Position numbers and translations under genes: made by a program | Notes under the pieces: model-generated | What the model was told of the DNA's origin: nothing | The model's input: the letters and a program-made list of their open reading frames with translations, nothing else | Databases searched by the model: none | Assembly (NCBI GenBank): GCA_963788205.1 | Contig: CAWBGG010000003.1 | Location: 21,083 to 85,082 of the forward strand | DNA: 64,000 nt | Reading direction: 5' to 3' | DNA from: an uncultured delta proteobacterium | Lineage (GTDB): Bacteria; Desulfobacterota; Binatia; Binatales; Binataceae | Shown: positions 4,853 through 46,018 of the stretch, piece by piece | Layout of the letters: each line of letters starts with the position of its first letter | How positions within the stretch are numbered: position 1 is the stretch's first letter

Positions 4853-4864
4853 AAAACCGGCGAG

Positions 4865-12089: not shown

Positions 12090-12181
12090 GCGCCTCTCTA
12101 TCGCCAAAACAGGAGCGGTCTTTAAGGCCCCTCCACGGCCCGGGCTTTTAGCGAAATCGCTGTCTGGCGCTTTCCCCGCCC

Positions 12182-12508
12182 TTACGCTGTCACTTCGTGT
12201 GCGGCGCTTTCAGCGCGCCGTACCCGGACCTTAACCTCTACGCGCGACCCGAGCCGATTGATGATCGACATCAGGCGATCGACGGTGAAGCGCCCGAGGT
12301 TCGCATTGCGAATGCGAGAGAAGTCGGTCGCCGCGATGCCGGTGCGGCTGTGCGCGGCGCGCACGCTCAAGCCGTCCCGATCGAGCGCCTTGATGATCTC
12401 AGCAGCCAGGATCGCTTTGAACTGTTGGGCATCCGCACTCTCATCTCCGAGGTCGCGAAAAACATTTCCGCTTCCTCGCACCGCTTCCAGCTTTTCTTTC
12501 TTCATCAC
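12182..12508 (-). CDS. XRE/HTH_37 (HigA-like) antitoxin or regulator
   Basis: GSGNVFRDLG...DFSRIRNANLGRFTVDRLM. Confidence 0.88.
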   Translation of the reverse strand: MMKKEKLEAVRGSGNVFRDLGDESADAQQFKAILAAEIIKALDRDGLSVRAAHSRTGIAATDFSRIRNANLGRFTVDRLMSIINRLGSRVEVKVRVRRAESAAHEVTA

Positions 12509-12521
12509 AACATCTCGCTTC

Positions 12522-12548
12522 TGTTGTCATATATGACAACACTGTCAA
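12522..12548 (-). promoter_or_regulatory. Perfect 20-bp operator palindrome plus TTGACA -35 box
   Basis: TGTTGTCATA|TATGACAACA at 12522..12541; TTGACA on the - strand at 12543..12548. Confidence 0.75.
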
Positions 12549-12560
12549 GCAAGCCCGCCA

Positions 12561-12702
12561 GACGGTGGTCAAGTTGGGCTTTGATGTTCCGAGCTGAAAG
12601 CCCGAAGCCTCGGTCGATTCCGCTTCCTGCCACCCACCTTCGCCGCACCCTAGGCGCAGGGGTCCTCAGCCGGCAATCGCAGAGCCGAAGTTGACCGCTA
12701 CC
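12561..12702 (+). mobile_element. MITE-like element copy A (lacks the inner hairpin module)
   Basis: Ends GGTGGTCAAGTT...AAGTTGACCGCTACC; body aligns with 53657..53926 and the reverse complement of 56490..56783. Confidence 0.75.
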
Positions 12703-12774
12703 CGCCGGACAGTAGTGGCCGGGTTTGGGCTCTTGATTCTCTAATTGAGACAAGCGATTCCTACGCTGTTGACT

Positions 12775-13269
12775 ATGATGCCCAGCACTGCCAGCGCCGA
12801 GATTCATATCGCGATGCCGCCTGATCGGGTGTGGGAGAAGTTGCGCGACTTGAGCAAGCCGCATCTCTATGTGCCCGGCCTCACCGGCTGTCAGATTACG
12901 ACCGCGCAGCGCGAAGGGGTGGGCGCGAGCCGGCGGGTATTTCAAAAGGGGCGCGCGCCGATGGACGAGACCGTGATCGAGTGGACGGAAGGGCAGGGCT
13001 TTGTGATTCGGCTGCATCAAGGCGACAAGTCTCCGCTCCCGTTCAAGGAAGCCCGCTTCATCTACCGAATCGACGCGGACATCGACGGCGGATCGATCTT
13101 CAAACCGGCGATTGTCTACACGCTGCGCGGCGGAGCCTTCGGGAAGCTGCTGGATCGCCTGGTGCTGAACCGGGTCATCACCGGGGTCGTGCGGAAGGTC
13201 GGTCTTAATCTCAAGCAGTACTACGAGACCGGCCAGCCCTCGAACCGGGCTTACCGGGACTCGAAGTAG
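12775..13269 (+). CDS. SRPBCC (polyketide cyclase-like) family protein
   Basis: IAMPPDRVWEKLRD...GVGASRRV...ETVIEW pattern. Confidence 0.8.
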   Translation: MMPSTASAEIHIAMPPDRVWEKLRDLSKPHLYVPGLTGCQITTAQREGVGASRRVFQKGRAPMDETVIEWTEGQGFVIRLHQGDKSPLPFKEARFIYRIDADIDGGSIFKPAIVYTLRGGAFGKLLDRLVLNRVITGVVRKVGLNLKQYYETGQPSNRAYRDSK

Positions 13270-13362
13270 GCGCCAGCCTGCGCGCGCATGATCGCTTGAA
13301 TTCACTTCAGGGTTGGGTCAGGCTTTTAAACTCGCATGGACGACTGACGAGCACGCTGCGAC

Positions 13363-14670
13363 GTGAGTGCAATCGGTACAGTGATCGAGGCGGCTCCCCG
13401 CTATGCCGCGCTGCTCCGATCGCAGTATTGGAAGCCTGAGCAACTCGACTCTTACCGCGAGCGTCACCTCGCAAAGACGCTCCGCGCCGCGGCGCAGATT
13501 CGGTTTTACGCCGAACGGCTGGGCGGCGCGCCCCGGGTCGAGGATCTTCATCGGCTTCCGGTCCTGCAACGCAGCGACATCGCGGCGCTGAGCCGCTCGC
13601 TCCGCTCGCTTTATCCGGTCGATACCCGCTACATCAGGTCGCGCTCATCCGGAACCAGCGGCGATGCGGTCGAGCTATTGTTCGATCGGTCTCATCAGCG
13701 CGGTCGATACGCCGCGCGGATCCGATATCTGCGGAGCGACGGATGGAATCCGCTAGCCCGCACCGCATGGTTCAACAGCAGCCGATTCATGGCGGGCAAT
13801 AGCGACTCTGCCGACGCGGCGTTTGCGAGAAGCCGGTTGATCCGCGTGGGCCTCACGTTCATTTCCAATTCCACTCCTTTTCACGAGCAGGTGAGAATCC
13901 TGGCGAAGCTCAAGCCGGCGTTCCTCTATGTGTATCCAAACGACCTCGACGGAATGCTGAGTGCTCTGGAGGAGTCTGGGCAGACGCTGCCCTCGCTGCG
14001 CCGGATTTTTTCGGGCGGAGAGGTCGTGACTGATTCGCTGCGCGATCGCGTCCGGCGGCGGTTGGGCCTGGAAACATTTGACAATTACGGCTCGACTGAA
14101 GCGTTCATGGCATGGCAATGCCCCACGGGCAGCTATCACATCAACGCCGAGCACGTTTTCCTCGAGGTCGTGGATGAAGCCGGCCGCCAAGTCGCTCCCG
14201 GTCAACACGGCCGCGTACTGGTTACGACCCTGGAGAACTACCTGATGCCCCTGGTGCGCTATGAAATCGGCGACTACGCTATCGCGACTGAAGGCAATTG
14301 CTCGTGCGGGCGGACTCTGCCGCTATTCGGACAGGTTCTCGGCCGCCAGATGAACCTCTTGCGAACGGTCGATGGCAGCCTGACCTCGGGCTGGCCGCTG
14401 GTGAACATCTTGCGGGACGTTCCGGAGCTGCGCTTGTTCCAGATCGTCCAGCGATCGGTCGACCAAATATCGGTGCGTTACGTCGCGGAGCAACCTATGG
14501 GCGCGCAGGCCGAAACTCGGATCCGAACCGGGTTCAGCGGTTTGCTGGGAGACCGTGCAGCCGTCGGATTTGAGCGTGTACCGCAAATTGCGCGCACTGC
14601 CGGGGGCAAGTTCATGCTCACGCTATCGGAAGTGCCGAGCCAGGCTGCGGTTGCGGCACATGAAAGGTAG
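13363..14670 (+). CDS. Phenylacetate-CoA ligase-like (PaaK/CapK) adenylate-forming protein
   Basis: RSSGTSG, DNYGSTE, MPLVRYEIGD, CSCGRTLP, RTAGGKF. Confidence 0.85.
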   Translation: MSAIGTVIEAAPRYAALLRSQYWKPEQLDSYRERHLAKTLRAAAQIRFYAERLGGAPRVEDLHRLPVLQRSDIAALSRSLRSLYPVDTRYIRSRSSGTSGDAVELLFDRSHQRGRYAARIRYLRSDGWNPLARTAWFNSSRFMAGNSDSADAAFARSRLIRVGLTFISNSTPFHEQVRILAKLKPAFLYVYPNDLDGMLSALEESGQTLPSLRRIFSGGEVVTDSLRDRVRRRLGLETFDNYGSTEAFMAWQCPTGSYHINAEHVFLEVVDEAGRQVAPGQHGRVLVTTLENYLMPLVRYEIGDYAIATEGNCSCGRTLPLFGQVLGRQMNLLRTVDGSLTSGWPLVNILRDVPELRLFQIVQRSVDQISVRYVAEQPMGAQAETRIRTGFSGLLGDRAAVGFERVPQIARTAGGKFMLTLSEVPSQAAVAAHER

Positions 14671-14863
14671 GCGATCGCGCAGATGGAGCGCCACGTAGCA
14701 GACGCGCTGGCGTGATCCGGGTCTGATCCCTGGTGCTTGCAGACCCCCTGCTGCAGATACAAAATACACCAAACCTCGTTCTCCATTGCCGGCCGACTCG
14801 ATTGGAGCGTAGAGAGGGGGGGTGCGGGGAAGAGCATAGTCAATAGGGAGATTGAGCGGGGAG

Positions 14864-16411
14864 ATGAAGATAGCAAAGCGGTTTGCTGATCCGTGCACAA
14901 CTCCAGGTTGTCACAGAGTTCGTGCGACAATGGTGCGGCGAGGGCTTGGCTCCTTGGTAGCCGCGCCTGGGCTGATTCTGGCTCTCGTTGCGACGGCCAA
15001 TGCGACCGTCCACTGCGTGAGCGCCAACGGCAAAGTGCCCAAGGCGACGGCCAAGCTCACCGGTTGCGCGGCCATGACTTCTTTTATGACGATCAGCAGC
15101 GCCGTTGCGGCCGCGGCTCCCGGCGATACCGTGTACGTCGTCAATGGAACCTACTCGGAGATGGTGACGATACCGGCCACGCTTACCGGGCTTTCGCTAA
15201 TCGGCGAGGAGTCGGGATGCCCGCTCGGCGGCTGCCCGCCGTTTCTACTTGGTGTCGGCGCGCTTGGAAAGCTGAAGACCATCATCAACGCGAGCAACTT
15301 GACCAACGGGATTTGGGATCAAGCCAGCAGCGTGACGATCAGCGGCTTCGCGGTCTCCAACGCCAATCACGAAGGCATCCTGGTGCAGGGCGCGCAGCCG
15401 ACTTGCACTACGGCCTCGCCGCCGGTCTGCACCCCTGCGGGTCCGTCGATCAACCACGTCACCATCAGCGACAATTCCATCACCGGCAACGACAAGCAGG
15501 CGACGCCGACGACTTGTCCGGGCGGTCCCGATCTCGAAGCGGGCGATTGCGGCGAGGGCTTGCATCTGGACGGCGTGGTGCTCTCGACCGTAGTGAACAA
15601 CACGGTTGACGGTAACGCCGGCGGAATCCTGATCACCGACGAGACCGACCCCAACCACGACAACCTGATTCTCGCCAACGACGTAGAGGGCAACAACACC
15701 GGCGCCGCTTGCGGTATCACGCTTCCCTCGCACACTCCCCAAGGCAGCTTCGCCAATGCGGGTGCGGCTTGCTTCGGCGTTTTCCACAACACCGTAGCGG
15801 GCAACATCTCCAAGGGTAACAGCAACGGGGCAGGGGTTGGAGTTTTCGCTCCCTTTCCCGGCAGCGCCGCGTACGAAAATGTCATCGCCGAAAACCAGCT
15901 AATCGGCAACGGCCAGCCGGGCGTCAGCTTTCACAGCCATGCTCCCGCCCAGAACCTCGGCGGCAACACGGTGGTCGGGAACACGATTCAGGGCAACGGA
16001 GCTGATCCGTCCCCCGGGCCGACCGAGACTGACGGTCCGGCCGCCGCGACGGGAATCGAGGTCTATGCCGATTTGACCGCGCCGCCGCTTGACGTGCAGA
16101 TCGAGGGCAACACGATCAGCGACGAGGCCAATGACATCTGGGTCGGCGCGCCAGGTTGGACCAACTGTGGATCGGCTGCCGCACCTTGTTACAATGTGTC
16201 CGCTTATCTCAACATTCTGGACGGCGGAAAAACTGCCGTGACGGGCGTGAACAACGTCGGAGCCAGCGCCGCGGTTTCGGTCGGTGCGGCCGACGATTAC
16301 TGGGGATGCTCCAGCGGCCCGGGTACAGCGAAGGGATGCTCGTCCACAACCGGCAACGTCAGTACGTCGCCGTTCCTGATCGCTCCGGATCTGGGTCCTT
16401 TTAGCAAGTAA
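14864..16411 (+). CDS. Secreted right-handed parallel beta-helix (NosD/pectin-lyase-like) protein; true start may be 14930
   Basis: Signal peptide, GDTVYVVNGTYSE, many N-x-I-x-G-N repeats, C-terminal DDYWG. Confidence 0.82.
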   Translation: MKIAKRFADPCTTPGCHRVRATMVRRGLGSLVAAPGLILALVATANATVHCVSANGKVPKATAKLTGCAAMTSFMTISSAVAAAAPGDTVYVVNGTYSEMVTIPATLTGLSLIGEESGCPLGGCPPFLLGVGALGKLKTIINASNLTNGIWDQASSVTISGFAVSNANHEGILVQGAQPTCTTASPPVCTPAGPSINHVTISDNSITGNDKQATPTTCPGGPDLEAGDCGEGLHLDGVVLSTVVNNTVDGNAGGILITDETDPNHDNLILANDVEGNNTGAACGITLPSHTPQGSFANAGAACFGVFHNTVAGNISKGNSNGAGVGVFAPFPGSAAYENVIAENQLIGNGQPGVSFHSHAPAQNLGGNTVVGNTIQGNGADPSPGPTETDGPAAATGIEVYADLTAPPLDVQIEGNTISDEANDIWVGAPGWTNCGSAAAPCYNVSAYLNILDGGKTAVTGVNNVGASAAVSVGAADDYWGCSSGPGTAKGCSSTTGNVSTSPFLIAPDLGPFSK

Positions 16412-26628: not shown

Positions 26629-27297
26629 ATGGCGCGTGGAACAACCGAACGAGCCGAGCGTCTGGCGATTTCGATCCTGAAGCGTGTCGGTTCGTTTTAT
26701 GAACCGTACGCCGCTGGCGGATCCGGCCCTATTTTCAGCCCTACGTGGCCCGCGTGCGCACGCGCTATGAGCGCATGGAGCCGCGCGAGAAGGCCCTGGT
26801 CCAGATCGCGAGCGCGGTGGTGGCGGTGTTTGCGGCCTACAATCTGGTCTACGCGCCCTTTCAGAGCCTGCGCCAGGATCTGCGCGACCGGACCGAGACG
26901 CGCGAGCGCCAGGTCAACGAGGTCCGCCGCCTGGTGCAGCAATATCGGCAACTCGGCCTGGAAGTCGCTGCCGCCAAGAAGCGCACCGTCCAGCAGGGCC
27001 GCGACTTCTCCCTGTTTTCGGCGGTAGAGGGCAAGCTTACCGATACCGTAGGCGTCGCCAAAGTCAGCGTCGATCACGCCGGGCGAGGACAAGAAGATCT
27101 CCAAGGACCTGGTTCAGCACAACGTCGATATCTCGCTGGCGGGCGTGAGCCTGCCCGAAATAGTCAACACGCTGTACGGAATCGATACGCTTCCGGTTCC
27201 GGTGCTGATCTCCGATCTGCATATCAAGCGCGGCCAGTTGGTCACCAATGCCTTCGACGTGCAGATGACTTGCGTGGCGATTGGCAAGAATGGCTGA
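26629..27297 (+). CDS. gspM: T2SS protein M, frameshifted
   Basis: RYERMEPREKALV followed by a TM segment and coiled coil; operon position. Confidence 0.72.
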
Positions 27298-27306
27298 GCT
27301 GCAAGA

Positions 27307-28147
27307 ATGGCTGAGCTGTTAGAGCGCCTGCGTTCCAGCAAGCGGCTGCTCTACACGGTCTTTGGCTTCGTCCTGTTCCTGATGTTCCTGGTCGCCGATT
27401 TTCCCTACGGCGACATGGTCTCCTCGCTGCTCGCCCCCTCCGGCCTCAGGCTCGACTACCAGGACCAGCATCTGAACCTTCCCTTCGGAGCGCGCTTCGA
27501 CGACGTAACGTTGCGTTATGCAGAAGGCTCTGCCAGCGGATCGATGCTGGTCGAGAGCAGCAACGTGGCGGTTTCGCCGACTCTCGGATCGCTGCTCTTT
27601 GGGCGCCCCGGGCTACGGATGGTTGCGAATCTGCGCGACGGATGGCTGCGCGTGACGCTCAGCACGCGCGGCAGCGCCACCGCTGCCAGCTTCACTGCGC
27701 ATGAGGTCGGACTGGCCAGCTTCGGTACGCTAAGCCAGTTCGCGAAGGGCAGCCTGTCGGGCGAGGGATAGATCGAGCCTCGACGACGGCAAGCCGCTCG
27801 ACGGCAAGGGGATGGTCGAGTTGTCGGGCAAGGCGCTGGCGGTGCATTTCGGACCGGCGCTGCCGCCGATCGAGCTCGACCAGGCCAACGGCAAGCTCCG
27901 GATGGACAATGGCGTGGTGACGATCGAGAACCTGCAGGGGCACGGGCGCGACCTTTCGATTAGCGCGAGTGGAACGATTCAGCTCGCGCCCGAGCTTTTG
28001 CGCAGTATCGTGGACCTGAGCGTGACGCTCAACCCAACGCCGTCGGGCTCGCGGCGCTTCGGCGCATTGCTCGGCTTCCTGCCCCATCCGCCCGGCTCCC
28101 AGCCCTACACCGTACGCGGCCCGCTGGGGCTCCCGTCGATCAGCTGA
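27307..28147 (+). CDS. gspN: T2SS protein N (deltaproteobacterial type), frameshift near 27765
   Basis: FLVADFPY N-terminus; ...SGTIQL...VRGPLGLPSIS C-terminus. Confidence 0.75.
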
Positions 28148-28162
28148 ACCGGTGCGATCCGC

Positions 28163-28269
28163 CTGGTGCCGTTCCAACTATTCGCGCCTAAGCGGGGCGG
28201 TTTGGCTGAGTGAGCGGGGAAAGCACACGGCTCGCTATAATTCGGAACAACAAGTTGGAACGGCACTAG
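28163..28269. mobile_element. 107-bp MITE-like element with 17-bp terminal inverted repeats
   Basis: CTGGTGCCGTTCCAACT ... AGTTGGAACGGCACTAG (1 mismatch); internal TATAAT at 28236. Confidence 0.7.
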
Positions 28270-29033
28270 GCCGGGGCGGCGGCGAAAAAAGGCCCGACCG
28301 CCTCTTTGTAGAGTTTGTCGCCAGGCGCGTTCAGATGGTCGCGGCCTTCCAGCCGCACCAGCTCCGCGCCCGGAATAGCTCCGGCCAGAGGCTCCCCGCT
28401 TCCCACCAGCTCGTCCTTGGTCCCGACCACGATCATGACCGGTATCCGAATCGTGCCGATCGTTGCCGGATCGAGCGCCGGCAGATCGCCCGACATGCAG
28501 GCCGCCAGTGCCTTAAGGTCGTTGCGGTTCGCTTCGGCGAACTGGCGGAACTGGCGCGCTATCGGCTCGGCAACGTCCTCGGCGCGCTCGGCGAGCAGGG
28601 CCTTGGCGATCACTCCGCGCCGGCGCGGATCGGCCATCGAGTTCGCGCCGCCCGTTCCGCCTCCGATCCCGCCCAGCACCGCCGCGCGAATCCGGCCGGG
28701 ATACGAAAGTATGACGCCGAGCGAGATCCACGCGCCCATCGAATAACCCATCAGCAGCGCGCGGGGAACCTTGAGATGGTCGAGCAGCCGCACCACGTCG
28801 CCGGTCATATTTGCCTGGCCGTAGGCTTCCGGCTCATGCGGCTTGGCGCTCAGGCCGTGGCCACGGCAATCCATCGCGATCACCCGGTAATTCGGCGCCA
28901 GAAAATCGAGCCATCCGGTGAGCTCCCAGTTCTGCTTGAGGTTGGAGGCGAAGCCATGAACCAGCACCACCGGCGCTCCGCTTCCGCGCTCTTCGTAATG
29001 AATCGCGACTCCGTTTGAATCGAACGACGGCAT
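28266..29033 (-). CDS. Alpha/beta hydrolase
   Basis: LVHGF, DCRGHG, GYSMG nucleophile, D and H of the triad. Confidence 0.92.
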   Translation of the reverse strand: MPSFDSNGVAIHYEERGSGAPVVLVHGFASNLKQNWELTGWLDFLAPNYRVIAMDCRGHGLSAKPHEPEAYGQANMTGDVVRLLDHLKVPRALLMGYSMGAWISLGVILSYPGRIRAAVLGGIGGGTGGANSMADPRRRGVIAKALLAERAEDVAEPIARQFRQFAEANRNDLKALAACMSGDLPALDPATIGTIRIPVMIVVGTKDELVGSGEPLAGAIPGAELVRLEGRDHLNAPGDKLYKEAVGPFFAAAPA

Positions 29034-29141
29034 CTGGATCTCCTCCGCGCCGGTCTCGCGCTATGCTGTGCAGCCTTGCACGCGCTCGCCGGGACCTGAA
29101 CCCTGTTACCACGAGCCCCCAGCGCGCGGCCAGCGCCATCG

Positions 29142-29231
29142 CGGCAAGCTGGCTTGCAAAGCTGCGGCACCGCCGCTAACGCCGGCATGCACCGTCGCTG
29201 CGCATCGCGAGTTCGGGCCGCGCCGAGCGAT
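29142..29231 (+). repeat. Promoter-containing direct repeat, copy 1 (90 bp)
   Basis: 78/90 identical to 33805..33894. Confidence 0.9.
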
Positions 29232-29288
29232 GCGCTCGGGGGACCGCAGGCGAGTCACTGGCAGGCTCGATGTGCTTTAATCGCGGTC

Positions 29289-29777
29289 ATGGGCGCCACA
29301 CACACCTTGCGCGTGAACGACAAACGGTACGAGGTGGCTGTCGACTATGAAGACACGCCCCTGCTCTACGTTCTTCGCAACGATCTGGGCCTCAAGGGCA
29401 CGCGATTCGGATGCGGCGAGGGAAATTGCGGCGCTTGCACGGTGCTGATCGATGGCCGCGCCCAGCGCTCCTGCGAGCTGCCGGTCTGGTCCGTGGAAGG
29501 CAAGTCGATCATGACGATCGAAGGGCTCGGCGCGAGCGACCGGCTGCATCCACTGCAGCAGGCCTTCCTCGATTTCCAGGCCGGCCAGTGCGGCTACTGC
29601 CTCTCCGGGATCATCATGACGGCGGTAGAACTGATCCAAGCGGGCGGCGAACCGTCGCGGCAGAAGATTGTCGAGGCACTCGATCGCAATCTCTGCCGAT
29701 GCGGGGCTCACGCCCGAATCATCGGTGCGATAGAGGCGGCGTGGAAGAAGTCATGCGAGGAAACACACCGTGACTGA
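29289..29777 (+). CDS. (2Fe-2S) small subunit of a molybdenum hydroxylase
   Basis: GCGEGNCGAC...C, QCGYC, NLCRCG. Confidence 0.92.
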   Translation: MGATHTLRVNDKRYEVAVDYEDTPLLYVLRNDLGLKGTRFGCGEGNCGACTVLIDGRAQRSCELPVWSVEGKSIMTIEGLGASDRLHPLQQAFLDFQAGQCGYCLSGIIMTAVELIQAGGEPSRQKIVEALDRNLCRCGAHARIIGAIEAAWKKSCEETHRD

Positions 29778-31890
29778 GCAGCGGCTGCCTTGGAGCATCC
29801 ACGAGAATCCGTCGCTCGACCAATGGGTCGATTTCAGCCAATGGGGTGTCGCGCGCGTGTTTTCCGCCAAGGTCGAGCTCGGACAGGGCATCGTGACCGC
29901 GGTCGCACAAATCGCCGCCGAGGAATTGAGGCTCCCGATGTCGCAGGTCGTGCTGGTCTCGGGCGACACTCGCTGTTGCCCCAACGAGAGCTACACCGTC
30001 GGCAGCATGTCGATCGAGATCGGCGGAACGTCGGTCAGGATGGCGTGCGCAGAAGCGCGATATGCGCTCGTCGAGCAGGCGGCGCACTTGCTCCAAGCCG
30101 ATCCGTCGCGAATCACCGTTGATGGCGGCCTGATCCTGATGGATGGCAAACCGTCCGGCCTGGATTACTGGCAAGTCGCGGCGCACGTGGACTGGAAACG
30201 CCCGGTCACCGGCGCGATCGCCTTCACTCCACCAGGGGCGCACATCGGTCGCAGCGTCCCGCGGCTGGACCTTCCATCGAAGCTGGCCGGCGGCGCATTC
30301 ATCCACGACCTGGAGATGCCCGGCATGCTGCACGGACGCGTGCTACGGCCGCCGTCGTACGGCGCCCGCCTGGAATCGCTCGATCGCTCGCGGGCCCAGG
30401 CGCTGCCCGGCGTGGTCAACATCTGGTGCAGCGGCGATTTCGTCGGGGTCTGCTGTGAACGGGAATACCAAGCCGTCAAGGCCTTGGAAGCGCTGCGCGC
30501 AGGCGCGCGCTGGCTCGAGAGCGAAACGGCTCACGATGGCCGAAGCTGGAAGGAATTACTCCCTTCGCTTCGCGCCATCGATTCCGAAGCGGAGGTTGGT
30601 ACGCACCCGGCGTCCGTGGCGAACCTGCGGCGAGTGTCCGCCACTTACTCGAAGCCGCCGCTGGCACACGCGTCGATGGCGCCCTCATGCGCGATTGCTC
30701 GCTTCGACGACGATCGGGTTACGGTCTGGACCCATTCGCAGGGAGTCTTTCCACTGCGGGACGCACTGGCCGGCGCCTTGGGACTAGAGCGCGAACCAAT
30801 CGCTGTGATTCATGTGCAGGGCGCCGGAGTGTACGGCCATAACGGCGCCGATGACGCCGCGCTCGATGCTGCCTTGCTCGCGCGGCAGGTTCCTGGCCTC
30901 CCGGTGCGGTTGCAGTGGACGCGCGATGACGAACTCGCCTGGTCGCCGCTCGGTTCGCCGATGGTCTTGAAGATCGACGGCGCGGTGACGCCCGCCGGCC
31001 ATATCGCTGAGTGGACCGCGAATATCTGGAGCGGACCGCATGGCCGGCAACCCTCGCGCGGCGCGGTCAATCTGTTGGGCGCGTCTCACATCGATCCGCC
31101 GATTCCGTTCCCTGAAGCTTACGAAATGCTCGGCGCATTCGCCGGCGGCGCGCGCAACTCCGAGCCCGCCTACGACTTGGCCCATCGCAAGATAGTCCTG
31201 CATAGCCTGCCGGGCCTCCCGTTCCGCACCTCATCGCTGCGCACTCTCGGGGGCTACGCGAATGTATTCGCCACCGAGTCATTCATGGATGAACTGGCTT
31301 CGGCCGCCGGCGCCGACCCGGTCGAGTTTAGGCTGCGCCATCTCTCGGATCCTCGCGCCCGTCAGGTGATCGAGACCGCAGCGCGGCTCTCGGAGTGGCA
31401 ACCCGATGCCGAGCGTGGGACCGGACGCGCGAAGGGGATCGGCTTCAGTCGCTACAAGAACACCGCAGCCTACGTAGCCGTAGTTGCGGAGGTCAACGTC
31501 GAGATCGAGCCGCGAGTCACCAACGCCTGGTGTGCAGTCAACGCGGGATTGGCGATCAATCCGGATGGCGTCATCAATCAGATCGAGGGCGGCATCGTGC
31601 AATCGATTAGCTGGACGCTGAAAGAAGAGGCCGGTTTCGATGGCCGCCGCGTGACTACCCGTAACTGGGATCAGTATCGCATTCTTCGCTTCAGCGAGGC
31701 GCCGGAACTGAAGGTCGAATTGATCCAGCGGCAGGAGTGCCCGCCGCTGGGCGTGGGCGAGGCGGCTCAGGGCCCCGCGGCCGCGGCGGTGGCGAATGCG
31801 GTCGCGCGCGCTCTCGACTTGCGAATCCGTGACCTGCCGATTACACGCGCGAGGATAATCGCTGCGACCAGCGGCGCAACCTCGCCCTGA
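29770..31890 (+). CDS. Molybdopterin-binding large subunit (nicotinate/isoquinoline dehydrogenase-like)
   Basis: KVELGQG, HASMAPS, YGHNGADDAA, NPDGVINQIEGG, GVGEAAQGP. Confidence 0.9.
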   Translation: MTEQRLPWSIHENPSLDQWVDFSQWGVARVFSAKVELGQGIVTAVAQIAAEELRLPMSQVVLVSGDTRCCPNESYTVGSMSIEIGGTSVRMACAEARYALVEQAAHLLQADPSRITVDGGLILMDGKPSGLDYWQVAAHVDWKRPVTGAIAFTPPGAHIGRSVPRLDLPSKLAGGAFIHDLEMPGMLHGRVLRPPSYGARLESLDRSRAQALPGVVNIWCSGDFVGVCCEREYQAVKALEALRAGARWLESETAHDGRSWKELLPSLRAIDSEAEVGTHPASVANLRRVSATYSKPPLAHASMAPSCAIARFDDDRVTVWTHSQGVFPLRDALAGALGLEREPIAVIHVQGAGVYGHNGADDAALDAALLARQVPGLPVRLQWTRDDELAWSPLGSPMVLKIDGAVTPAGHIAEWTANIWSGPHGRQPSRGAVNLLGASHIDPPIPFPEAYEMLGAFAGGARNSEPAYDLAHRKIVLHSLPGLPFRTSSLRTLGGYANVFATESFMDELASAAGADPVEFRLRHLSDPRARQVIETAARLSEWQPDAERGTGRAKGIGFSRYKNTAAYVAVVAEVNVEIEPRVTNAWCAVNAGLAINPDGVINQIEGGIVQSISWTLKEEAGFDGRRVTTRNWDQYRILRFSEAPELKVELIQRQECPPLGVGEAAQGPAAAAVANAVARALDLRIRDLPITRARIIAATSGATSP

Positions 31891-31896
31891 CCACCT

Positions 31897-31941
31897 TGGC
31901 TTGCAAAGCCGCGGCGCTGCCGCTAAGACCAGCATGCACCG
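31897..31941 (+). repeat. Promoter-containing direct repeat, copy 2 (45-bp core)
   Basis: TGGCTTGCAAAGCCGCGGCGCTGCCGCTAAGACCAGCATGCACCG. Confidence 0.9.
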
Positions 31942-31987
31942 AGATTGTTCGCCGCGCTCCGCCTGATCAAGGCCGCACCGGATCGTA

Positions 31988-33697
31988 TCAGCGCTCGCCG
32001 GGCGTGAGCTGGGGGGTAAGCTCAGTACTTGCGGTTGCTCCAGCGTTCACGGTGATGGAAGCTGGATTCCCGAAGGCGGGTGTGGCCTCGACCGCATCTG
32101 AAGACGACGTATACCAACGGACATAATCCGCCATCATTGGTTGCGGGTTGATCAGGCCACCGGTCGAACCGCCCAAGGTGCCGCCGACCGCCACATTCAT
32201 GATCAGGAAAATATCGGCATCAAATGGCCACGTGTCTCCCTGCGGAAGGTCGCCTGCCGTGACAATGAAAAACGGTGCTGATGGATTGTCCACATAAAAC
32301 TCCATCATGTCCGCGGACCAAATCACCCCGTAGGTATGGAAGGCGGTGTCCGATTGCTGGCCGCTGGGGAACTCGTAAGTCTCCGGGATTCCGGTACCTC
32401 CAGTCTCGGCCGTGTGAATAGTCAACACGACCCCTGCGGGACCTGGTCCGTAGGCAACTTGAGCGGACCAGTCCTCCATGAAATCCGCTTCGCCGCAATT
32501 GGGCCACGAAGTCTCTGGGTAGTCGCTGCCGAGGGACCAAAAGGCGGGCCAAAGGCCTGGCTTGGTCGTATCAGGAATATGGAGACTGGCCTCGATCAGG
32601 CCGTACTGAAAGTTTTCTAGGCCTTCCGTCTTCATGCGGGTTGAGAGCCATGTTTCATTGTTGTTGATCGGCTGAATCACGAGGTGCCCGTCACCATCGA
32701 TATATACGGTGTTGGTAGTAGTGCTGAACTCAGTCGGACACTGTGACGGATTACCCGGGTATCCCGGAGGCCCGCAGTAGACTTCCACCTCCTTGTTGCC
32801 CCAACCATGATTGTTCCCGAGGTCAAAACTCCACACGGTGGTGTCCGGAGGAGCTGCAGCGCCGTTAAATTCCTGACACCATTGCGGCGTCCACGTCACC
32901 GACCCCGTTGTAATGGTGGGAACGCCGCTGCAGCTTGGGGTGGTGGTGCAGGTCACCGCCACGTTCGTGACATTCGCCCGGCCTACCGTTCCGGTGCTGT
33001 TCTTTACGGAGCAGGGTTGGGCGGGAGCAGCAGGCTGACTAAGAACTGTGACGCTGTAGGTGCTCCCGGCGGCGATCTTGCTGCTGAACGTGAAAGAACC
33101 GTTCGCGGTTACCGCGAGGTTGTTACTCCCGTTGTTCTGAAGGACGAGCCCCGAGCCGCTAAGGGCCGAGACCGTACCGCCGATGGTGTGCTCTGCCGGC
33201 GATGGCGTCGCCGTGGCTTTCCCGTGCAAATCGACGCTAGCCCTGGTTGGCCCGCTGGTCGCACTACTGGTGATAAGGATGGTCCCGTCCACGTTCTTGC
33301 CGGGTTCGTCGGGGGTGAACTCAACGTCGACCGCAATGCTGCTCTCGCTGCCGCCCTCTCCCTTGCCGGGAATCGTAGTGTCCCCGCCGCCCGACGTGAT
33401 GACGTAGTGGGGATTCGAGGGCGGGCCGACGCTTACGTCCAGCGGCAGCTTCCCGTCGTTCGTGATGGTGAAGTGCCGGGTCTCGGAGGTCTTTTTGTCG
33501 AGGTTGAGGTCGTAGATCAGCGTCGTGGCCGAGATAGAAAGTTTACTTACGGCTGCCTTGCCGTCTGGTGGCGCATCTTCATCCGATTGCGTCAACGCCG
33601 GGCGCGCAGACGCGGCCAGCACAAGTAGCAGCGAGAAACTGAGGCCCGCGATTGACCGCGTAATCGACTTGAAGCGCGTCGCCTGTGCCTCCTTCAT
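31988..33697 (-). CDS. Secreted Ig-like plus GH16 (laminarinase-like) glycoside hydrolase
   Basis: Signal peptide; GLWPAFW..G...WP.CGEADFME (ExDxxE), FHTYGVIW, MNVAVGG, DYVRWY. Confidence 0.88.
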   Translation of the reverse strand: MKEAQATRFKSITRSIAGLSFSLLLVLAASARPALTQSDEDAPPDGKAAVSKLSISATTLIYDLNLDKKTSETRHFTITNDGKLPLDVSVGPPSNPHYVITSGGGDTTIPGKGEGGSESSIAVDVEFTPDEPGKNVDGTILITSSATSGPTRASVDLHGKATATPSPAEHTIGGTVSALSGSGLVLQNNGSNNLAVTANGSFTFSSKIAAGSTYSVTVLSQPAAPAQPCSVKNSTGTVGRANVTNVAVTCTTTPSCSGVPTITTGSVTWTPQWCQEFNGAAAPPDTTVWSFDLGNNHGWGNKEVEVYCGPPGYPGNPSQCPTEFSTTTNTVYIDGDGHLVIQPINNNETWLSTRMKTEGLENFQYGLIEASLHIPDTTKPGLWPAFWSLGSDYPETSWPNCGEADFMEDWSAQVAYGPGPAGVVLTIHTAETGGTGIPETYEFPSGQQSDTAFHTYGVIWSADMMEFYVDNPSAPFFIVTAGDLPQGDTWPFDADIFLIMNVAVGGTLGGSTGGLINPQPMMADYVRWYTSSSDAVEATPAFGNPASITVNAGATASTELTPQLTPGER

Positions 33698-33804
33698 ACT
33701 CCGCTCGGAAAACACTCCAGTTTCGCGCGGCAGGCGTCAACCAGGGTGAGCGAAACCGCGCGGCGATGTTTCGCCACCCGAGGGCGGCGAAGTTGTAAAC
33801 CAAA

Positions 33805-33894
33805 CGGCAAGCTGGCTTGCAAAGCCGCGGCACTGCGGCTAAGACCAGCATGCACCGGCGCTGCGCGTCGCGATTTCGCGGCGCGTCGAGCGAT
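33805..33894 (+). promoter_or_regulatory. Direct repeat copy 3; candidate sigma70 promoter for 33917..34213
   Basis: TTGCAA (33817)-N17-TAAGAC (33840). Confidence 0.75.
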
Positions 33895-33916
33895 CAAACC
33901 GACCAAGGAGCAAGCG

Positions 33917-34213
33917 ATGTCGATAATCGTGGTCGCCAGATTAAAGGCCAAACAGGGCAGTGAAAAAATCCTCGAAGATGCGTGCCGCGCGATGGTGCCC
34001 AACGTCCGTGGCGAGGCCGGAACCGAGAGCTATATCTGTCACCGCTCGGTCCCCGATCCCACGGTTTTTCTCTTCTATGAGGTCTACAAGGACCAGGCCG
34101 CATTCGAGGCCCACGGCAACACGCCGTACATGGCCGAGTTCCTAAAGGCCCTGCGTGGCAACCTCGACGGCCACCCGCAGATCGACATGCTGAGCGTGCT
34201 GGACAAGAAATAG
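33917..34213 (+). CDS. Putative quinol monooxygenase (ABM domain)
   Basis: AAGGAG RBS; FLFYEVYKDQAAFEAHGNTPY. Confidence 0.9.
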   Translation: MSIIVVARLKAKQGSEKILEDACRAMVPNVRGEAGTESYICHRSVPDPTVFLFYEVYKDQAAFEAHGNTPYMAEFLKALRGNLDGHPQIDMLSVLDKK

Positions 34214-34243
34214 GATTGCCGCCGCGCCACTCGTCCTGGCGCG

Positions 34244-35107
34244 CTAGCCCAGGAACGCGAGAATCTCGCGATTCACGATCTCCGGCGCTTCGCGCTGGCA
34301 GAAATGGCCACAGCGTTCGAGTTTCTTGAACGTCAGACGCTTAAAGTAATCCTTTAGGTTGTCGCTCCACGCGACCGGGATGATCGAGTCGCTGTCGCCC
34401 CACAGCACCATCGTGGGATGTTCGATCGTCCAGCCCGGCGTCAGCGCGGTGATCGGCGCGCGCCGGAACGCCCGATAGTTGTTGAACCCTCCGCGCAGCG
34501 CGCCGGGCTGGCTGAACGCCTCGACATACTGCGCGACCTCCGCGTCGCTGAAGAGGTTTTTGTCGTACGACCAGTGGGAGAGAAAGTGGCGCAAGTAGAG
34601 TTCGGTCGCGCGCCGCGATGAGCCCACCAGATCTTCCGCCAACTGCAACTGGTGGAAACTCTGGTACCAGGTCTCCTGGATGTGCGTGATGTCGAACCAT
34701 CGCATCCCGACGCCGGGGTACGGCGGATCGAACAACACCAACCGGCGCAACGCGTTGGGATACTTGAGCGCGAACGCCTGCGCCACGATCGCGCCAATGT
34801 CGTATGCAACGATATCGACCGTGCCCAGCTTGAGCGCGCCGATGAGCCCCATCACGTCGCCGGCGTGAGCCTCGTCGGTGTAGCCCTGCTCGGGCGGCAG
34901 GTCGGGCTTGTCGGAGTACCCGAAGCCGCGCAGGTCCGGCGCGATCACGTCGAAGCGGCGGGCGAGCTCGCCGATGTTGAGATGCCAGTCGAACCAGAAC
35001 CCCGGCCATCCATGCAGCAGAATGACGGGCGTGCCCTGCCCCTCGCGCACGTAATGAATCTTGATCGCGCCGACCTGCGCATTATGGTGATGAAATTGCT
35101 CGGCCAT
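34244..35107 (-). CDS. Alpha/beta hydrolase (epoxide hydrolase-like)
   Basis: HGWP, PDLRGFG, YDIG Asp nucleophile, NNYR, CGHF. Confidence 0.9.
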   Translation of the reverse strand: MAEQFHHHNAQVGAIKIHYVREGQGTPVILLHGWPGFWFDWHLNIGELARRFDVIAPDLRGFGYSDKPDLPPEQGYTDEAHAGDVMGLIGALKLGTVDIVAYDIGAIVAQAFALKYPNALRRLVLFDPPYPGVGMRWFDITHIQETWYQSFHQLQLAEDLVGSSRRATELYLRHFLSHWSYDKNLFSDAEVAQYVEAFSQPGALRGGFNNYRAFRRAPITALTPGWTIEHPTMVLWGDSDSIIPVAWSDNLKDYFKRLTFKKLERCGHFCQREAPEIVNREILAFLG

Positions 35108-42312: not shown

Positions 42313-45062
42313 GCGAGTTTTTTTCTCCGGCCGATCAGACGGGCCCGCCCGCAATCCCGGCCGGACTGCGCGGTGAAGCGGCGCTGAGCGCAGAGCTGCA
42401 AGCCCGCCGCACGCCCGGCGCGACGGCTCGCGCCTATCTTGAAGCGGTGCGCGCGGAGTTGTTCCAGCGCCATCTGGCGGGCGCCAGCGGCACCGAAATC
42501 GTCGCCGCGTCGACCCAGGCGATGGACGACCTGGTCCGCGCGCTGTTCCGCTATGCCGATGCCGAGCACGGGCGCAAGCTCAGCCTGCCGCGCCTTAACC
42601 AGCGCGTCGCGATCATCGCGCGCGGCGGCTACGGCCGCGCGGAGCTCAACGTCCACTCGGATATCGACCTGCTTTTTCTGCATGACTGGAAAGTCGGACC
42701 GTACCTCGAGATCGTGGCTGAAACGGTGCTGAACGCGCTCTGGGATGCGGGCCTGACGGTCGGGAACGCGACCCGCAACCTGCGCGAGTGCGTCAAGATG
42801 GCGGCTGACGATCTGAAGGAAAAGACCGCGCTAATCGACTCGCGCTTTCTGGCCGGCGACGAGCGGCTGTGGGCAGAGCTCGATAAGGCGATGATCTCCG
42901 ACGTGCTTAACCGCAATCAGTTGAAGTTCTTCAAGGCCAAGCTCGAGGAAACCCGCGAGCGCCATCGCCGCTACGGCGATTCGGTCTACCTGCTCGAACC
43001 GCAGATCAAGGAAGGCGAGGGCGGCCTGCGCGACCTGCATACCGCATTGTGGCTGGCCAAGGTCAAGTACAAGGTCCATTCGCTCGAAGAGTTGGTGCAG
43101 AAGGCGGTCATCACCGAAGCCGAATGCGACGAGGTGCGCCAGGCGCGCGACTTTCTCTGGCGGGTGCGCAACTCGCTGCACTTCGCCAGCGGCCGCCATC
43201 AGGACCATCTCACCTTCGAGTACCAGGATCGGATCGCGCCGCTGATGGGCCTGGGCGAGGGAACTGCGGCTGCCGATCGGCTGATGAATTCCTACTATCA
43301 GTCGGCCAGCACGATCCTGCGCTTCTCCGAAGGGCTGATCGCGCGCGTTACCGAGGGGCCCGAGCCGGGGCGCTTTTTTCGCCGCAGCGCGCCGCGCCAG
43401 ATCCGGCCCGGGGTCGTTATCCATCAGCAATTGCTGGGCATCGCCGACCCCGCGCTCTTCAAGCGCGAGCCGCTCAACCTGCTGACGATCTTCGCCGACT
43501 GTGAGGCCCACGGCGTGGGACTTTCCGGCAGCGCCTACCAGGCCGTGCGCGATAATGTCGGCCTGATCGATGAGGCATTCCGCCGCGACCCGCGCACCGG
43601 CAAGGAACTGATGCGGATTCTTTCGGCGCCGGCGCGCGTCGCCGAGACGCTCGAGGCGATGCATCTGGCGGGCGTGCTGGGCGCGATCATTCCCGAGTTT
43701 GGCAAGCTCTACGCGCGCGTGCTCCACGACCTCTACCACATCTATACCGTCGATCGGCATTCGCTGGTCGCGGTGCGCGAGCTGGAAAAGCTCCGCGCCG
43801 GCGAGTTCAAGCAAGGCAATTCGCTGCTCACCGAGGTGGCCCGCGAGCTCGATTCGATCCCGTTGGTTTTCCTCGCGCTGCTGCTGCACGACATCGGCAA
43901 GGGCCACGGCCACGACCATCACGAACGCGGCGCCACGCTCACCGCCGAGGTCTGCCACCGGCTGGGCCTGGACGGCGAGGAGACCGACCTGGTCGTGTTC
44001 CTGGTGCGCAATCATCTGCTGATGTCGCAGGTGGCGCAGAAGGGCGATATCGACGACGACCACACGGTGGCCGAGTTCGTGCGCACCGCGGGCTCGATCG
44101 ACCGGCTGAAGGCGCTGCTGCTGCTGACCTTTGCCGACATGCGCGCGGTGGCGCCCAACGTCTACAACAACTGGCGCGACATGTTGTTGAGCGAACTCTA
44201 CATGCGATCGCTGAAGATCCTGGAGCAGGGCGACCGCGAGGCGGTTGATCCTGCGCGCCGGCTCGCGCTGGTCAAGTCCGCCGCCGCCGCGCAGCTCGCG
44301 GCCGCCGGCGCGCCCGGGCCCGAGATCGAAAAGTTCCTGGAGCTGATGCCCGACCGCTACTTTCTGATCACGCCCGAAAACGACCTCGCGCTGCACTTCG
44401 ATCTGATGCGCGCGCTGGGCGACCGCCTGACCGTGTGCCGCCATCGCCATTTCCGCGAGCGCGAGTTCAGCGAGTTCATCGTCGTAACGCGCGATCAGCC
44501 CGGCCTGTTCTCGAAGATCGCCGGCGTGCTGACCGCCAACAACCTCAACATCCTTTCCGCCCGGATCACGACCCGCACCGACGCCATCGTGATGGACGTG
44601 TTCAGGGTCGCGCACGGCAGCGGCGGCATCGCGCTGGAAGAGGAGCGCTGGCAGCGGGTCGAACGCGACCTCGATCGCGTTATCAGCGGCGAAGTCGACA
44701 TCGAGCGCCTGGTCGCCGACGCGCATGTCGCGCAGAGCTCGGGGCGCAAGTTCGTGCGCCGCCTGGCCACCGAGGTGACGGTCGATAATCGCTCCTCCGA
44801 GCAGTTCACGGTGGTCGACGTTTTCACCCAGGACCGCGTGGGACTGCTGTTCGCGATCACGCACACGCTGTTCAAGCTCGGCCTGCGGATTCATCTGGCG
44901 CGAATCTCCACCAACGCCGATCAGGCGCTGGATGTTTTTTACGTGAGCGATCGCGCCGGCAACAAGATCATCGATCTCGAACGGATGCGCGAGCTGCGCG
45001 GGGCGCTGCTCGCCAGGCTGGAGGGCGAGGCGGCGGCGGTGGTGGAGGGCACTTCGGCTTGA
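42309..45062 (+). CDS. glnD: [Protein-PII] uridylyltransferase
   Basis: GGYGR..L...SDIDL, KEGEGGLRD, HDIGKG, two ACT domains. Confidence 0.96.
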   Translation: MSEFFSPADQTGPPAIPAGLRGEAALSAELQARRTPGATARAYLEAVRAELFQRHLAGASGTEIVAASTQAMDDLVRALFRYADAEHGRKLSLPRLNQRVAIIARGGYGRAELNVHSDIDLLFLHDWKVGPYLEIVAETVLNALWDAGLTVGNATRNLRECVKMAADDLKEKTALIDSRFLAGDERLWAELDKAMISDVLNRNQLKFFKAKLEETRERHRRYGDSVYLLEPQIKEGEGGLRDLHTALWLAKVKYKVHSLEELVQKAVITEAECDEVRQARDFLWRVRNSLHFASGRHQDHLTFEYQDRIAPLMGLGEGTAAADRLMNSYYQSASTILRFSEGLIARVTEGPEPGRFFRRSAPRQIRPGVVIHQQLLGIADPALFKREPLNLLTIFADCEAHGVGLSGSAYQAVRDNVGLIDEAFRRDPRTGKELMRILSAPARVAETLEAMHLAGVLGAIIPEFGKLYARVLHDLYHIYTVDRHSLVAVRELEKLRAGEFKQGNSLLTEVARELDSIPLVFLALLLHDIGKGHGHDHHERGATLTAEVCHRLGLDGEETDLVVFLVRNHLLMSQVAQKGDIDDDHTVAEFVRTAGSIDRLKALLLLTFADMRAVAPNVYNNWRDMLLSELYMRSLKILEQGDREAVDPARRLALVKSAAAAQLAAAGAPGPEIEKFLELMPDRYFLITPENDLALHFDLMRALGDRLTVCRHRHFREREFSEFIVVTRDQPGLFSKIAGVLTANNLNILSARITTRTDAIVMDVFRVAHGSGGIALEEERWQRVERDLDRVISGEVDIERLVADAHVAQSSGRKFVRRLATEVTVDNRSSEQFTVVDVFTQDRVGLLFAITHTLFKLGLRIHLARISTNADQALDVFYVSDRAGNKIIDLERMRELRGALLARLEGEAAAVVEGTSA

Positions 45063-46018
45063 AAGCGCCGGACTGGGACGACGTCATCGAGCGCCATCTG
45101 AACCGCCGCGCGGTCGAGGGCGGCTTGGGCCGCAATTCGCGCGAAGCCTACGGGCACGATCTGCGCGAGTTCCAGACCTTTTGCCGCAAGGCCGGCGCGC
45201 AGCCCGCTACGATCGAGCCGCGCACGCTGACCGGCTATCTCGAAAGCATGGCCGAGCGGGGACTCTCGCCCGCCAGCCAGCGCCGCCATCTGGCGACTAT
45301 CCGCGGGCTTCTCCGCGATCTGGTCGAGCTCGGAATCCTCGCGCGCGACCCGTCGATCAACGTCAAGCTGCGGCCCCATCCGCGCCCCCTGCCGCGCACG
45401 ATGAGCCGCACCGATATCGAGCTGCTGCTCGAAGCGACCGACCAATCGACTCTGCGCGGGATGCGCGATCGCGCGATGCTCGAGCTGGCCTACGGATGCG
45501 GGTTGCGCGTGTCGGAGCTGGTGGGCCTTAAGCTCAACCAGATGAATCTCGCCCACGGACTGATTGTCGTGCTCGGCAAGGGTAACAAGGAGCGATTGGT
45601 GCCGATCGGCGGCGCCGCGAAACGCGCGCTCAGAGAGTATCTCCGCGAGCGCAGCCGGCCGGTCGAAAGAAAAAAACCCGCCGCGCGCGCGTCCAAGCCC
45701 AGCGACGCCGTTTTCCTGACCCGCTTGGGGCGCTCGATGACGCGGCAGGCGTTTTTCAAGTCGCTCAAGGGCTACGCCGCCAGCGATCCGCGCCTTGGAT
45801 GGATCAGTCCGCACACGCTGCGGCATTGCTTCGCCACCCACCTGCTGGAGGGCGGCGCCGACCTGCGCGCGGTGCAGGAGATGCTCGGCCACAGCGATAT
45901 CTCGACCACGCAGATCTACACCCACCTATCCAAGAGCCACCTGCGCAAAGTCCATCGGACGTTCCACCCGCGCGCCACGATCGCAAAGGCGGCGCGGCGT
46001 AACGCAGGCCTCAATTGA
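45059..46018 (+). CDS. xerD: Site-specific tyrosine recombinase XerD
   Basis: GLRVSEL, GKGNKER, SPHTLRHCFATHLLEGGADLRAVQEMLGH..ISTTQIYTH; housekeeping context. Confidence 0.88.
   Translation: MKAPDWDDVIERHLNRRAVEGGLGRNSREAYGHDLREFQTFCRKAGAQPATIEPRTLTGYLESMAERGLSPASQRRHLATIRGLLRDLVELGILARDPSINVKLRPHPRPLPRTMSRTDIELLLEATDQSTLRGMRDRAMLELAYGCGLRVSELVGLKLNQMNLAHGLIVVLGKGNKERLVPIGGAAKRALREYLRERSRPVERKKPAARASKPSDAVFLTRLGRSMTRQAFFKSLKGYAASDPRLGWISPHTLRHCFATHLLEGGADLRAVQEMLGHSDISTTQIYTHLSKSHLRKVHRTFHPRATIAKAARRNAGLN

Follow-up and report, generated by a model that had tools for sequence, protein, structure and literature searches.

How do two gene units come to stand between three copies of one short repeat, in front of a resident gene that is still joined to a copy of its own? 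This question is raised by a stretch of 64,000 nucleotides (the window, to whose positions all coordinates without a contig name refer) from an uncultured delta proteobacterium of the Binataceae, a soil bacterium whose genome (G000) comprises 4,832,001 bases in 9 contigs and is 90.6% complete. The repeat, called R in the following, is 90 bp long and contains a conserved part of 44–45 nt, the core. It is found before, inside and after a segment that holds a two-gene molybdenum hydroxylase (Mo-hydroxylase) operon and an inverted GH16 glycoside hydrolase gene, and this segment lies between a resident alpha/beta hydrolase gene (abh1) and a resident gene for an ABM-family monooxygenase. Comparison with relatives indicates that G000 gained the segment as a 4.66-kb insert at a site that the relatives keep uninterrupted. 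We consider it fairly probable that this patchwork entered the control element of the ABM gene by illegitimate insertion with a long target duplication, through template switching or end-joining capture. The parts of the locus are listed below, with gene identities from Pfam.

28266-29033, minus strand: abh1, resident alpha/beta hydrolase of the left flank (Abhydrolase_1, E 2.8e-22)
29034-29141, no strand: unique upstream spacer U, running into copy 1 exactly as in the empty-site relative L094
29142-29231, plus strand: repeat copy 1, full 90 bp
29232-29288, plus strand: Mo-hydroxylase leader, which travels with the Mo-hydroxylase unit
29289-29777, plus strand: Mo-hydroxylase small [2Fe-2S] subunit (Fer2_2, E 2.5e-25, and Fer2; NCBIfam matches all beneath their cut-offs)
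29770-31890, plus strand: Mo-hydroxylase large molybdopterin-binding subunit (MoCoBD_2, E 5e-41; MoCoBD_1, E 6e-22)
31897-31941, plus strand: repeat copy 2, the 45-bp core alone (repeat positions 9-53)
31942-31964, no strand: orphan joint DNA of 23 nt, no significant match in G000
31965-32000, plus strand: 36-nt filler, 34/36 identical to G000:C9:706803-706838
31988-33697, minus strand: GH16 glycoside hydrolase (Glyco_hydro_16, E 7.1e-11); the open reading frame also opens at GTG 33715
33698-33804, no strand: GH16 upstream DNA belonging to the insert, without homologs in the relatives or in the rest of G000
33805-33894, plus strand: repeat copy 3, full 90 bp, still joined to the ABM gene
33917-34213, plus strand: resident ABM-family monooxygenase (ABM, E 6.9e-18), with R as its conserved upstream element
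34244-35107, minus strand: abh2, resident alpha/beta hydrolase of the right flank (identified by Pfam)

The three-copy repeat is real. A first-pass annotation of the same DNA had given its coordinates, the identity of copies 1 and 3 (78 of 90 positions), the start of copy 2 six bases past the TGA stop (31888-31890) of the large Mo-hydroxylase gene, the core sequences and the gene order, and all of these were reproduced. In copies 2 and 3 the core has the sequence TTGCAA-N17-TAAGAC, with TAACGC replacing TAAGAC in copy 1, and it includes the short palindromes TTGCAA, GCATGC and GCAAGC..GCTTGC. Copies 2 and 3 show 2 differences over 44–45 core positions; overall the copies are mutually 87–96% alike, and the longest exact words common to pairs of them are 21, 20 and 13 nt. 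Across 100 shuffles 0 such matches were obtained. As the annotation had expected, the core is not dispersed: a search of the whole of G000 matched it at these three places only, the runner-up being a piece of 22 nt with E 0.07. The possibility that copy 2 is a diverged full 90-bp copy was rejected, as the DNA past 31941 gave shuffle fractions of 0.19 and 0.36 when compared with the right half of R.

An assembly artefact is unlikely because the joints are spanned by short-read contigs. These came from four public soil DNA runs of one study, possibly the source sample of this metagenome-assembled genome (MAG); the runs listed for the locus included none of RNA. One contig from X1 bridges 31770-32153 and one from X2 bridges 29184-29598, each with 0 other letters, and a third (X1) covers 33175-34067 with 1 other letter. 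No contig omitting a cassette was present among the four runs; an apparent cassette skip of 943 nt in the run contigs was disregarded, as one of its sides measures only 21 letters.

The uninterrupted site is preserved in the genus, of which we compared the four other species (G001–G004) together with the related metagenome contigs L093, L094, L096 and L097. The abh1 gene is syntenic in G001, G002, L094, L096 and also L093, where it is located at a contig end. In G001, G002, L093 and L094, which range from ~80% to ~90% identity to G000, abh1, a single R and ABM follow one another without interruption, and L096 shows abh1, then R, then the contig end. The closest relative is L094, being 89–92% identical to G000 over both flanks. 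Positions 28221-29229 of the window align with L094 1-1002 in one unbroken stretch (91.6%) and positions 33805-34213 with L094 916-1325 (89%). As both flank alignments cover it, one 87-nt segment of L094 is the counterpart of copy 1 and of copy 3. Thus, the simple hydrolase/monooxygenase locus that the first-pass annotation had derived by collapsing the repeats does exist in relatives with a single R, and these empty sites bear out its proposal that genes were captured into the ABM upstream region along with a duplication of that region, the resident gene retaining its upstream DNA. L097 and G003 have one R copy each, which precedes ABM although abh1 is missing, and for this reason R has to be assigned to the ABM gene.

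R with ABM but without abh1 is found at 2247-2641 of L097, and in G003 (L061 9950-12357) the pair lies in a wholly different neighbourhood, so that ABM with its upstream element is itself a relocatable unit.

Using a DNA search of 60 relatives we found the core in G001–G003, three of the genus's four further species; no conclusion drawn here depends on G020, a genome flagged as unpublished. With E up to 0.01 this search matched 25 of 61 genomes, the core itself being restricted to G001, G002 and G003; G023 gave one 33-nt match (E 7.9e-4) overlapping the left edge of the core, and the remaining matches are pieces of 22–41 nt, mainly from the GC-rich right half of R. A scan of genome contigs for the core pattern returned four loci, three of them in the same-genus MAGs G001–G003. 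The fourth, in a Bryobacteraceae MAG, lies among long open reading frames with none of the genes of the locus and was taken as chance. The corresponding scan of metagenome contigs returned five, including L093, L094, L096 and L097; the fifth, L095, has no match to the genes or DNA of the locus and was dropped. In the collections scanned the core therefore stands solely upstream of ABM and solely in this genus. Neither is it found at unlinked loci, nor is the full gene order fixed in relatives with one copy, which are the two observations that the first-pass annotation had named as speaking against its interpretation. In an alignment of ten sequences GGCTTGCAAA and GCTAAGACCAGCATGC are kept everywhere except in copy 1, and the spacer between them varies.

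The Mo-hydroxylase unit inside the insert (window ~29231-31900) shows 85–89% DNA identity to units of G002, G003 and G004, which are located at three other loci with flanks matching neither one another nor the window. Orthologs in two further genera (G014 and G018) again have different neighbours, and in G000 the unit is single-copy. Neither R nor another flanking repeat was found around the unit in G002, G003 or G004. Homology to the units of G002, G004 and G003 begins at 29231, 29246 and 29266, respectively, and the leader of ~57 nt carries the genus-conserved TGCTTTAAT ~8 nt ahead of the ATG and no Shine-Dalgarno sequence. This suggests that the unit may bring its own promoter, and copy 1 may be dispensable for driving it because of this conserved upstream motif.

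Two of the related units have broken large subunits. In G002 (C10:550796-552935) the gene is split across several frames, and in G003 (C12:25784-27880) it is interrupted by stops, with 2 TGA in one piece and 1 TAG and 1 TAA in another; both are either pseudogenes or long-read assembly errors.

For the GH16 gene no full-length ortholog was found in 60 relatives (9 of 61 genomes have partial matches) or in 164 genomes of the family, three of which match its N-terminal part only with 43–57% identity. Its GC content at third codon positions (GC3) is 0.71 vs 0.77–0.85 in the neighbour genes. Translation probably begins with the ATG at 33695-33697, which has GGAG before it, and the product is probably secreted, start and signal peptide being read from the sequence.

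The joints reveal how the pieces meet. At the left joint (29231/29232) R ends with ...GAGCGAT and is followed by the operon leader as in G002, with ~1 nt shared. At the end of the operon (~31896/31897) G000 reads TGACCACCT and then TGGCTTGC where G002 continues with TGACCACTTGGGCGCC, and 3–4 nt (TGG/C) are in common with R. The source of the 36-nt filler is an internal coding piece of an alpha/beta-hydrolase gene on another contig (E 2.4e-8 against G000), the best match among the relatives being 88% over 32 nt. On the plus strand the filler reads ...IKAAPDRIS..., the same as the C9 protein, and on the minus strand it forms the end of GH16, with the final 4 codons and the stop. No terminal inverted repeats were found at the insert ends. 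At least six pieces thus make up the locus, with joints that lie at or close to microhomologies and include templated filler.

The copies also tell something about the age of the event. Four or more derived states (CGGCA, GGCAC, a one-base insertion with TCGCG, and GCGAT) unite copies 1 and 3 against L094 and L097, and the two are thus sister copies that postdate the split from L094 and L097. They differ from each other at 12 of 90 sites and either of them differs from L094 or L097 at 10–14 sites; since the two are about as different from each other as from these relatives, the duplication must be old. Private changes in the 44-nt core amount to 5 in copy 1, 3 of them in a block invariant in the other copies and all relatives, to none or one in copy 2, which matches the L097 core at 43 of 43 positions, and to one or two in copy 3. 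Copy 1 looks to be under relaxed constraint, which would fit an operon that has its own leader.

We also compared G000 with itself and collected repeat pairs of 40–160 nt with at least 85% identity and a distance of 0.8–15 kb. Their orientations are as follows, with the dispersed families, which resemble miniature inverted-repeat transposable elements, as an orientation control.

All 93 pairs: 76 direct, 17 inverted
Unique pairs outside transfer RNA genes: 56 direct, 3 inverted
Unique pairs outside transfer RNA genes with low codon periodicity in both copies (26 loci): 33 direct, 2 inverted
Dispersed families: 14 direct, 14 inverted

One more of the 26 loci is C4:95961/100487/107438. No motif common to the repeat or insert ends was seen by eye in 21 repeat pairs. 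Both copies are located upstream of gene starts on the same strand in 13 of 31 pairs and the other 18 are arranged otherwise, a count made with a GC3-based gene caller that misses low-GC3 genes such as GH16. Six further repeat-flanked loci were compared with G001–G004, and at three of them (a, e and d) relatives show the site empty, with only one copy.

Locus a, C2:605269/614843: 91-nt repeat, 9.5-kb insert; empty site with one copy in G001
Locus e, C9:264009/266393: 79-nt repeat running through the ribosome-binding site and first codons, 2.3-kb insert; empty site in G001
Locus d, C7:656966/660275: 144-nt repeat that is a gene 3' end, 3.2-kb insert; one copy in G001, G002 and G003
Locus c, C9:484552/485533/489181: a second triple, repeats of 75–99 nt with 0.9 kb and 3.5 kb between copies; a mosaic, and G004 lacks one of the flanked genes
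Locus j, C7:46658/48798: 142-nt repeat with ~2 kb between; flanked gene elsewhere in G003 (92%), no empty site
Locus f, C5:28891/32642: 76-nt repeat with 3.7 kb between; uninformative

Two observations stand beside this collection. The window itself has a 46-nt direct repeat of 95.7% identity (4859-4904 and 6202-6247, corresponding to G000:C3:25941-25986 and 27284-27329) that flanks a gene of ~228 aa and may be another case of the same layout. In the sister species G002 the spacer between ABM and abh2 holds a complete type II block of clustered regularly interspaced short palindromic repeats (CRISPR) and Cas genes, located at 10475-16649 of L059 (G002:C17:152000-171999). It comprises Cas9 (1000 aa, 13375-16377), Cas1 (12423-13433) and Cas2 (11946-12290), all on the minus strand, and an array of 21 repeats of ~36 nt (10556-11895), and its borders are formed by a 76-bp direct repeat (87%) of the abh2 3' end, an insertion signature that the window displays as well.

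Which process would leave such traces? In the reading that we prefer and hold to be rather probable, R would be a conserved upstream control element of the ABM gene in this Binataceae genus, into which, in the G000 lineage and after its split from the ~90%-identical relatives, a patchwork would have been joined by illegitimate, sequence-independent recombination. This patchwork would have consisted of the Mo-hydroxylase operon with its leader, the 45-bp partial R, the 23-nt orphan DNA, the 36-nt hydrolase piece and the inverted GH16 gene, and the target would have been copied in the process, leaving R before, inside and after the insert. As a process we would choose first serial template switching during replication or repair and second a Ku-dependent joining of several captured fragments into a staggered break. 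Template switching is rated somewhat higher because a partial third copy nested in the insert and duplications of varying length would follow from it naturally. Ku (PF02735) is encoded in G000 (C7:403325-403858, E 5.3e-47), and a dedicated recombinase for the insertion was not found. As an outcome, abh1 and ABM both retain their native upstream DNA and a copy of R lies upstream of both incoming units. That DNA was inserted with duplication of its target, how the joints and the filler look and that the layout recurs in G000 can be seen in the sequences, whereas the enzymology, the number of events and any promoter activity of the copies are inferred.

Several points weigh against this reading. 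The insertion process is deduced from its products and was not seen in action. Template switching within the genome should leave the donor operon in place, and as G000 has one copy only, a lost or foreign donor has to be assumed. Staggered breaks with overhangs of 45–144 nt are not known to be a substrate of non-homologous end joining (NHEJ). An ancestral G is kept in copy 2 and replaced by A in copies 1 and 3, which may reflect two events, homoplasy or gene conversion and is as compatible with two events, or with a later gene conversion, as with a single event. Three of the six further loci (c, j and f) lack a clean empty site, and the tally of repeat pairs has to be read as a lead and not as a count of insertions, because some local direct repeats surely stem from tandem gene duplication. 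Furthermore, a simple sigma-70 scan of 28900-34300 found no promoter. The first-pass annotation had spoken of a triplicated promoter, of which the triplication of the upstream region stands, while 'promoter' is, given this empty scan, a label taken from position and conservation. The core agrees with 7 of 12 positions of the sigma-70 consensus and has no T at the last position of the -10 box. A search of the same region against Rfam with E up to 1 returned no family, leaving a riboswitch or small-RNA reading unsupported, and terminator-like sites are present there but uninformative.

Among the other explanations a stepwise capture of the Campbell type survives best, even if we regard it as improbable. 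Here circles consisting of a unit and R would integrate by single crossovers in R and could loop out again. Two such crossovers would give the observed R-unit-R-unit-R topology, the absence of the derived base from copy 2 looks as if this copy had another age or source, and a similarity of 87–96% would be expected if donor and recipient R had diverged. However, R-bearing circles would need a source and none is evident, as R is missing beside the operon in G002, G003 and G004, and a crossover inside R would not give joints at the R ends with filler DNA. Copy 2 is just 45 bp long with unrelated DNA on its right, cassette-skipping contigs are missing from the four runs, and exact words of 21, 20 and 13 nt are too short for efficient RecA recombination, for which roughly 23–27 bp are needed in E. 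coli.

Much less credit can be given to a site-specific system acting in trans, either integron-like or by integrase-less island accretion, in which the core would serve for attachment. The two units are indeed set apart by three copies of a single site, which by analogy resembles the site-unit-site arrays seen in integrons and in the accretion of integrative and conjugative elements (ICE) and cis-mobilizable elements (CIME), the core has its short palindromes, and eight tyrosine-recombinase matches are encoded in G000. Against this, none of the eight reaches the integron-integrase cut-off and the only such gene of the window, of the XerC/D type, is 11 kb away; the core occurs nowhere else in G000 and in the scanned collections only upstream of ABM in this genus, and the other repeat-flanked insertions use unrelated sequences of 46–158 nt without common ends. 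The XerC/D-type gene (45059-46018, plus strand; NF001399, 316.6 bits with a cut-off of 279) is housekeeping-like and unlinked to the insertion.

An ancestral filled locus, from which the genes would have been lost in the relatives through recombination between copies, is hardly credible, although direct repeats can mediate deletion and the site is variable within the genus, as G001, G002, L093 and L094 are uninterrupted, with partial support from L096, L097 and G003 (all single-copy), the derived states of copies 1 and 3 are missing from L094 and L097, the operon is located elsewhere in three sister species and the triplication would still have to come first.

The locus can also be compared with known systems. 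With integrons it has in common the order site-unit-site-unit-site beside a resident promoter-like element, and differs in that intI and hairpin attC are absent and each unit consists of full genes with a leader of its own. None of the 8 matches to TIGR02249 in the whole genome exceeds the cut-off for an IntI-type recombinase. The sites are direct copies of host ABM upstream DNA and not attC, the Mo-hydroxylase units of G002, G003 and G004 end without any cassette-borne site, and promoterless cassettes of one orientation are not what is found, as GH16 is inverted and the Mo-hydroxylase unit has its own conserved leader. The analogy to integrons is only topological, with every testable defining feature having failed. 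From the integron-like layout without an integrase that the first-pass annotation had proposed, the topology and the absence of intI can be kept and the mechanism has to be given up, as there is no attC, the joints show microhomology and units occur without the repeat; its interpretation as a whole is partly supported.

Transposons are recognized by a fixed target duplication of 2–15 bp, terminal inverted repeats and a transposase. Here, the target copy is 90 bp long without terminal inverted repeats, and Pfam revealed no transposase domain in abh1, the two Mo-hydroxylase subunits, GH16 or ABM. An integrative island of the ICE/CIME type does not fit, with no integrase in or beside the insert and the core confined to this locus in G000.

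The pair formed by copies 1 and 3 does qualify as a putative mobile promoter, defined by at least 80% identity over at least 50 nt within -150 to -50 of the starts of non-paralogous genes (PMC3575422). Copy 1 covers -147 to -58 of the 2Fe-2S gene and copy 3 covers -112 to -23 of ABM, the latter with 63 nt inside the zone, and 78 of 90 positions are identical. Such promoters are described by Matus-Garcia, Nijveen and van Passel (2012; commentary PMC3575422) as lacking an insertion sequence element and with the mechanism left open. Our locus resembles them in that upstream DNA of 90 nt and 87% identity stands before non-paralogous genes of one genome. It differs as here the genes entered the promoter region with target duplication instead of the promoter moving to the genes, and as the third, partial copy faces no gene start. 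Thus, relatives reveal the origin of the copy 1/3 pair, a point left open in the work on mobile promoters. Promoter capture by tandem duplication as in Cit+ (Blount et al. 2012, as cited in PMC3575422) is similar, as far as that citing account goes, in placing a duplicated promoter before a different gene with the resident gene keeping its own copy. Unlike here, a tandem duplication leaves a second upstream copy of the captured genes, which in our case are single-copy, and our left flank is contiguous with the sequence of relatives.

Serial template switching is the model known as microhomology-mediated break-induced replication (MMBIR) or fork stalling and template switching (FoSTeS), and a bacterial MMBIR model exists as well. 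Its features are present here, namely several joints in a small region with microhomology of ~1 and 3–4 nt, within the range of 1–4 nt, a templated insertion of 36 nt from a distant locus, a local segment duplicated and triplicated to three target copies, and one inserted segment inverted. The known cases are mostly human disease loci and E. coli amplification, whereas our locus is a fixed gene gain in a wild soil bacterium, its source DNA is not kept elsewhere in G000 and its layout is found again at many loci. Intermediate alleles were not seen in the four soil runs. For a human example, triplications that arose through iterative template switches are reported (PMC11293582).

Capture of foreign DNA by NHEJ, including two tandem cassettes, has been reported in Sinorhizobium (Dupuy et al. 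2019, PMC6379672). In the passages of that study used here, Ku/LigD capture is like our locus in being independent of homology, free of an integrase and able to join several fragments per break, and G000 encodes Ku. The experiments described in these passages used I-SceI breaks with 4-nt overhangs and mention no long target duplications, whereas the duplications of 45–144 nt seen here would need widely staggered breaks. Neither a transposon nor an integrase island, the locus is most like a microhomology-mediated complex rearrangement or end-joining capture.

Laboratory models aside, little is documented on the entry of foreign genes into bacterial genomes in the absence of integrases and homology, or on how the newcomers come to be expressed while the resident gene stays unsilenced, and reports of target duplications of 45–160 bp around integrase-less bacterial gene insertions did not come up in the open-access literature searched, which does not prove their absence. 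The locus is a fully resolved natural example, in which the site is visible in its empty and its filled state along with the joints and the filler DNA. Taken alone it is well resolved and of moderate novelty, and it is the recurrence, including the Cas9 locus of the sister species, that deserves attention, as the genome tally suggests that an insert bracketed by a long copy of its target is common in this lineage. We raise tentatively, as a possibility that we do not expect to be the case, that Binataceae gain and shuffle gene units, including a whole Cas9 locus, by an undescribed integrase-free and sequence-nonspecific insertion that duplicates 45–160 bp of its target. Hits in control regions would then leave newcomer and resident with one copy each, and the ABM triplication and the 26 loci of G000 would be fossils of this process. 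If the pattern holds across Binatota, it would be a measurable mode of gene gain and could explain many of the unexplained 'mobile promoter' pairs of prokaryotes.

The spacer between ABM and abh2 is a second variable spot among the relatives, its length being 30 bp in G000, ~675 bp in L094, ~940 bp in L093, 1.2 kb in G001 and 6.2 kb in G002. In G001 it contains an Abhydrolase_3 esterase gene (L060 10528-11703, minus strand), which in G000 is located on another contig (C6:157333-158428, 89% DNA identity) and is thus another single-gene unit whose address differs between sister species. Directly after ABM, G001 (L060 10404-10510) and G002 (L059 10338-10440) carry a partly palindromic dispersed repeat of ~100 nt, which is also scattered in G000, for example at C2:1189608, C2:1191047 and C5:644129, and a second dispersed family of ~125 nt is present in dozens of copies in G002 and G003.

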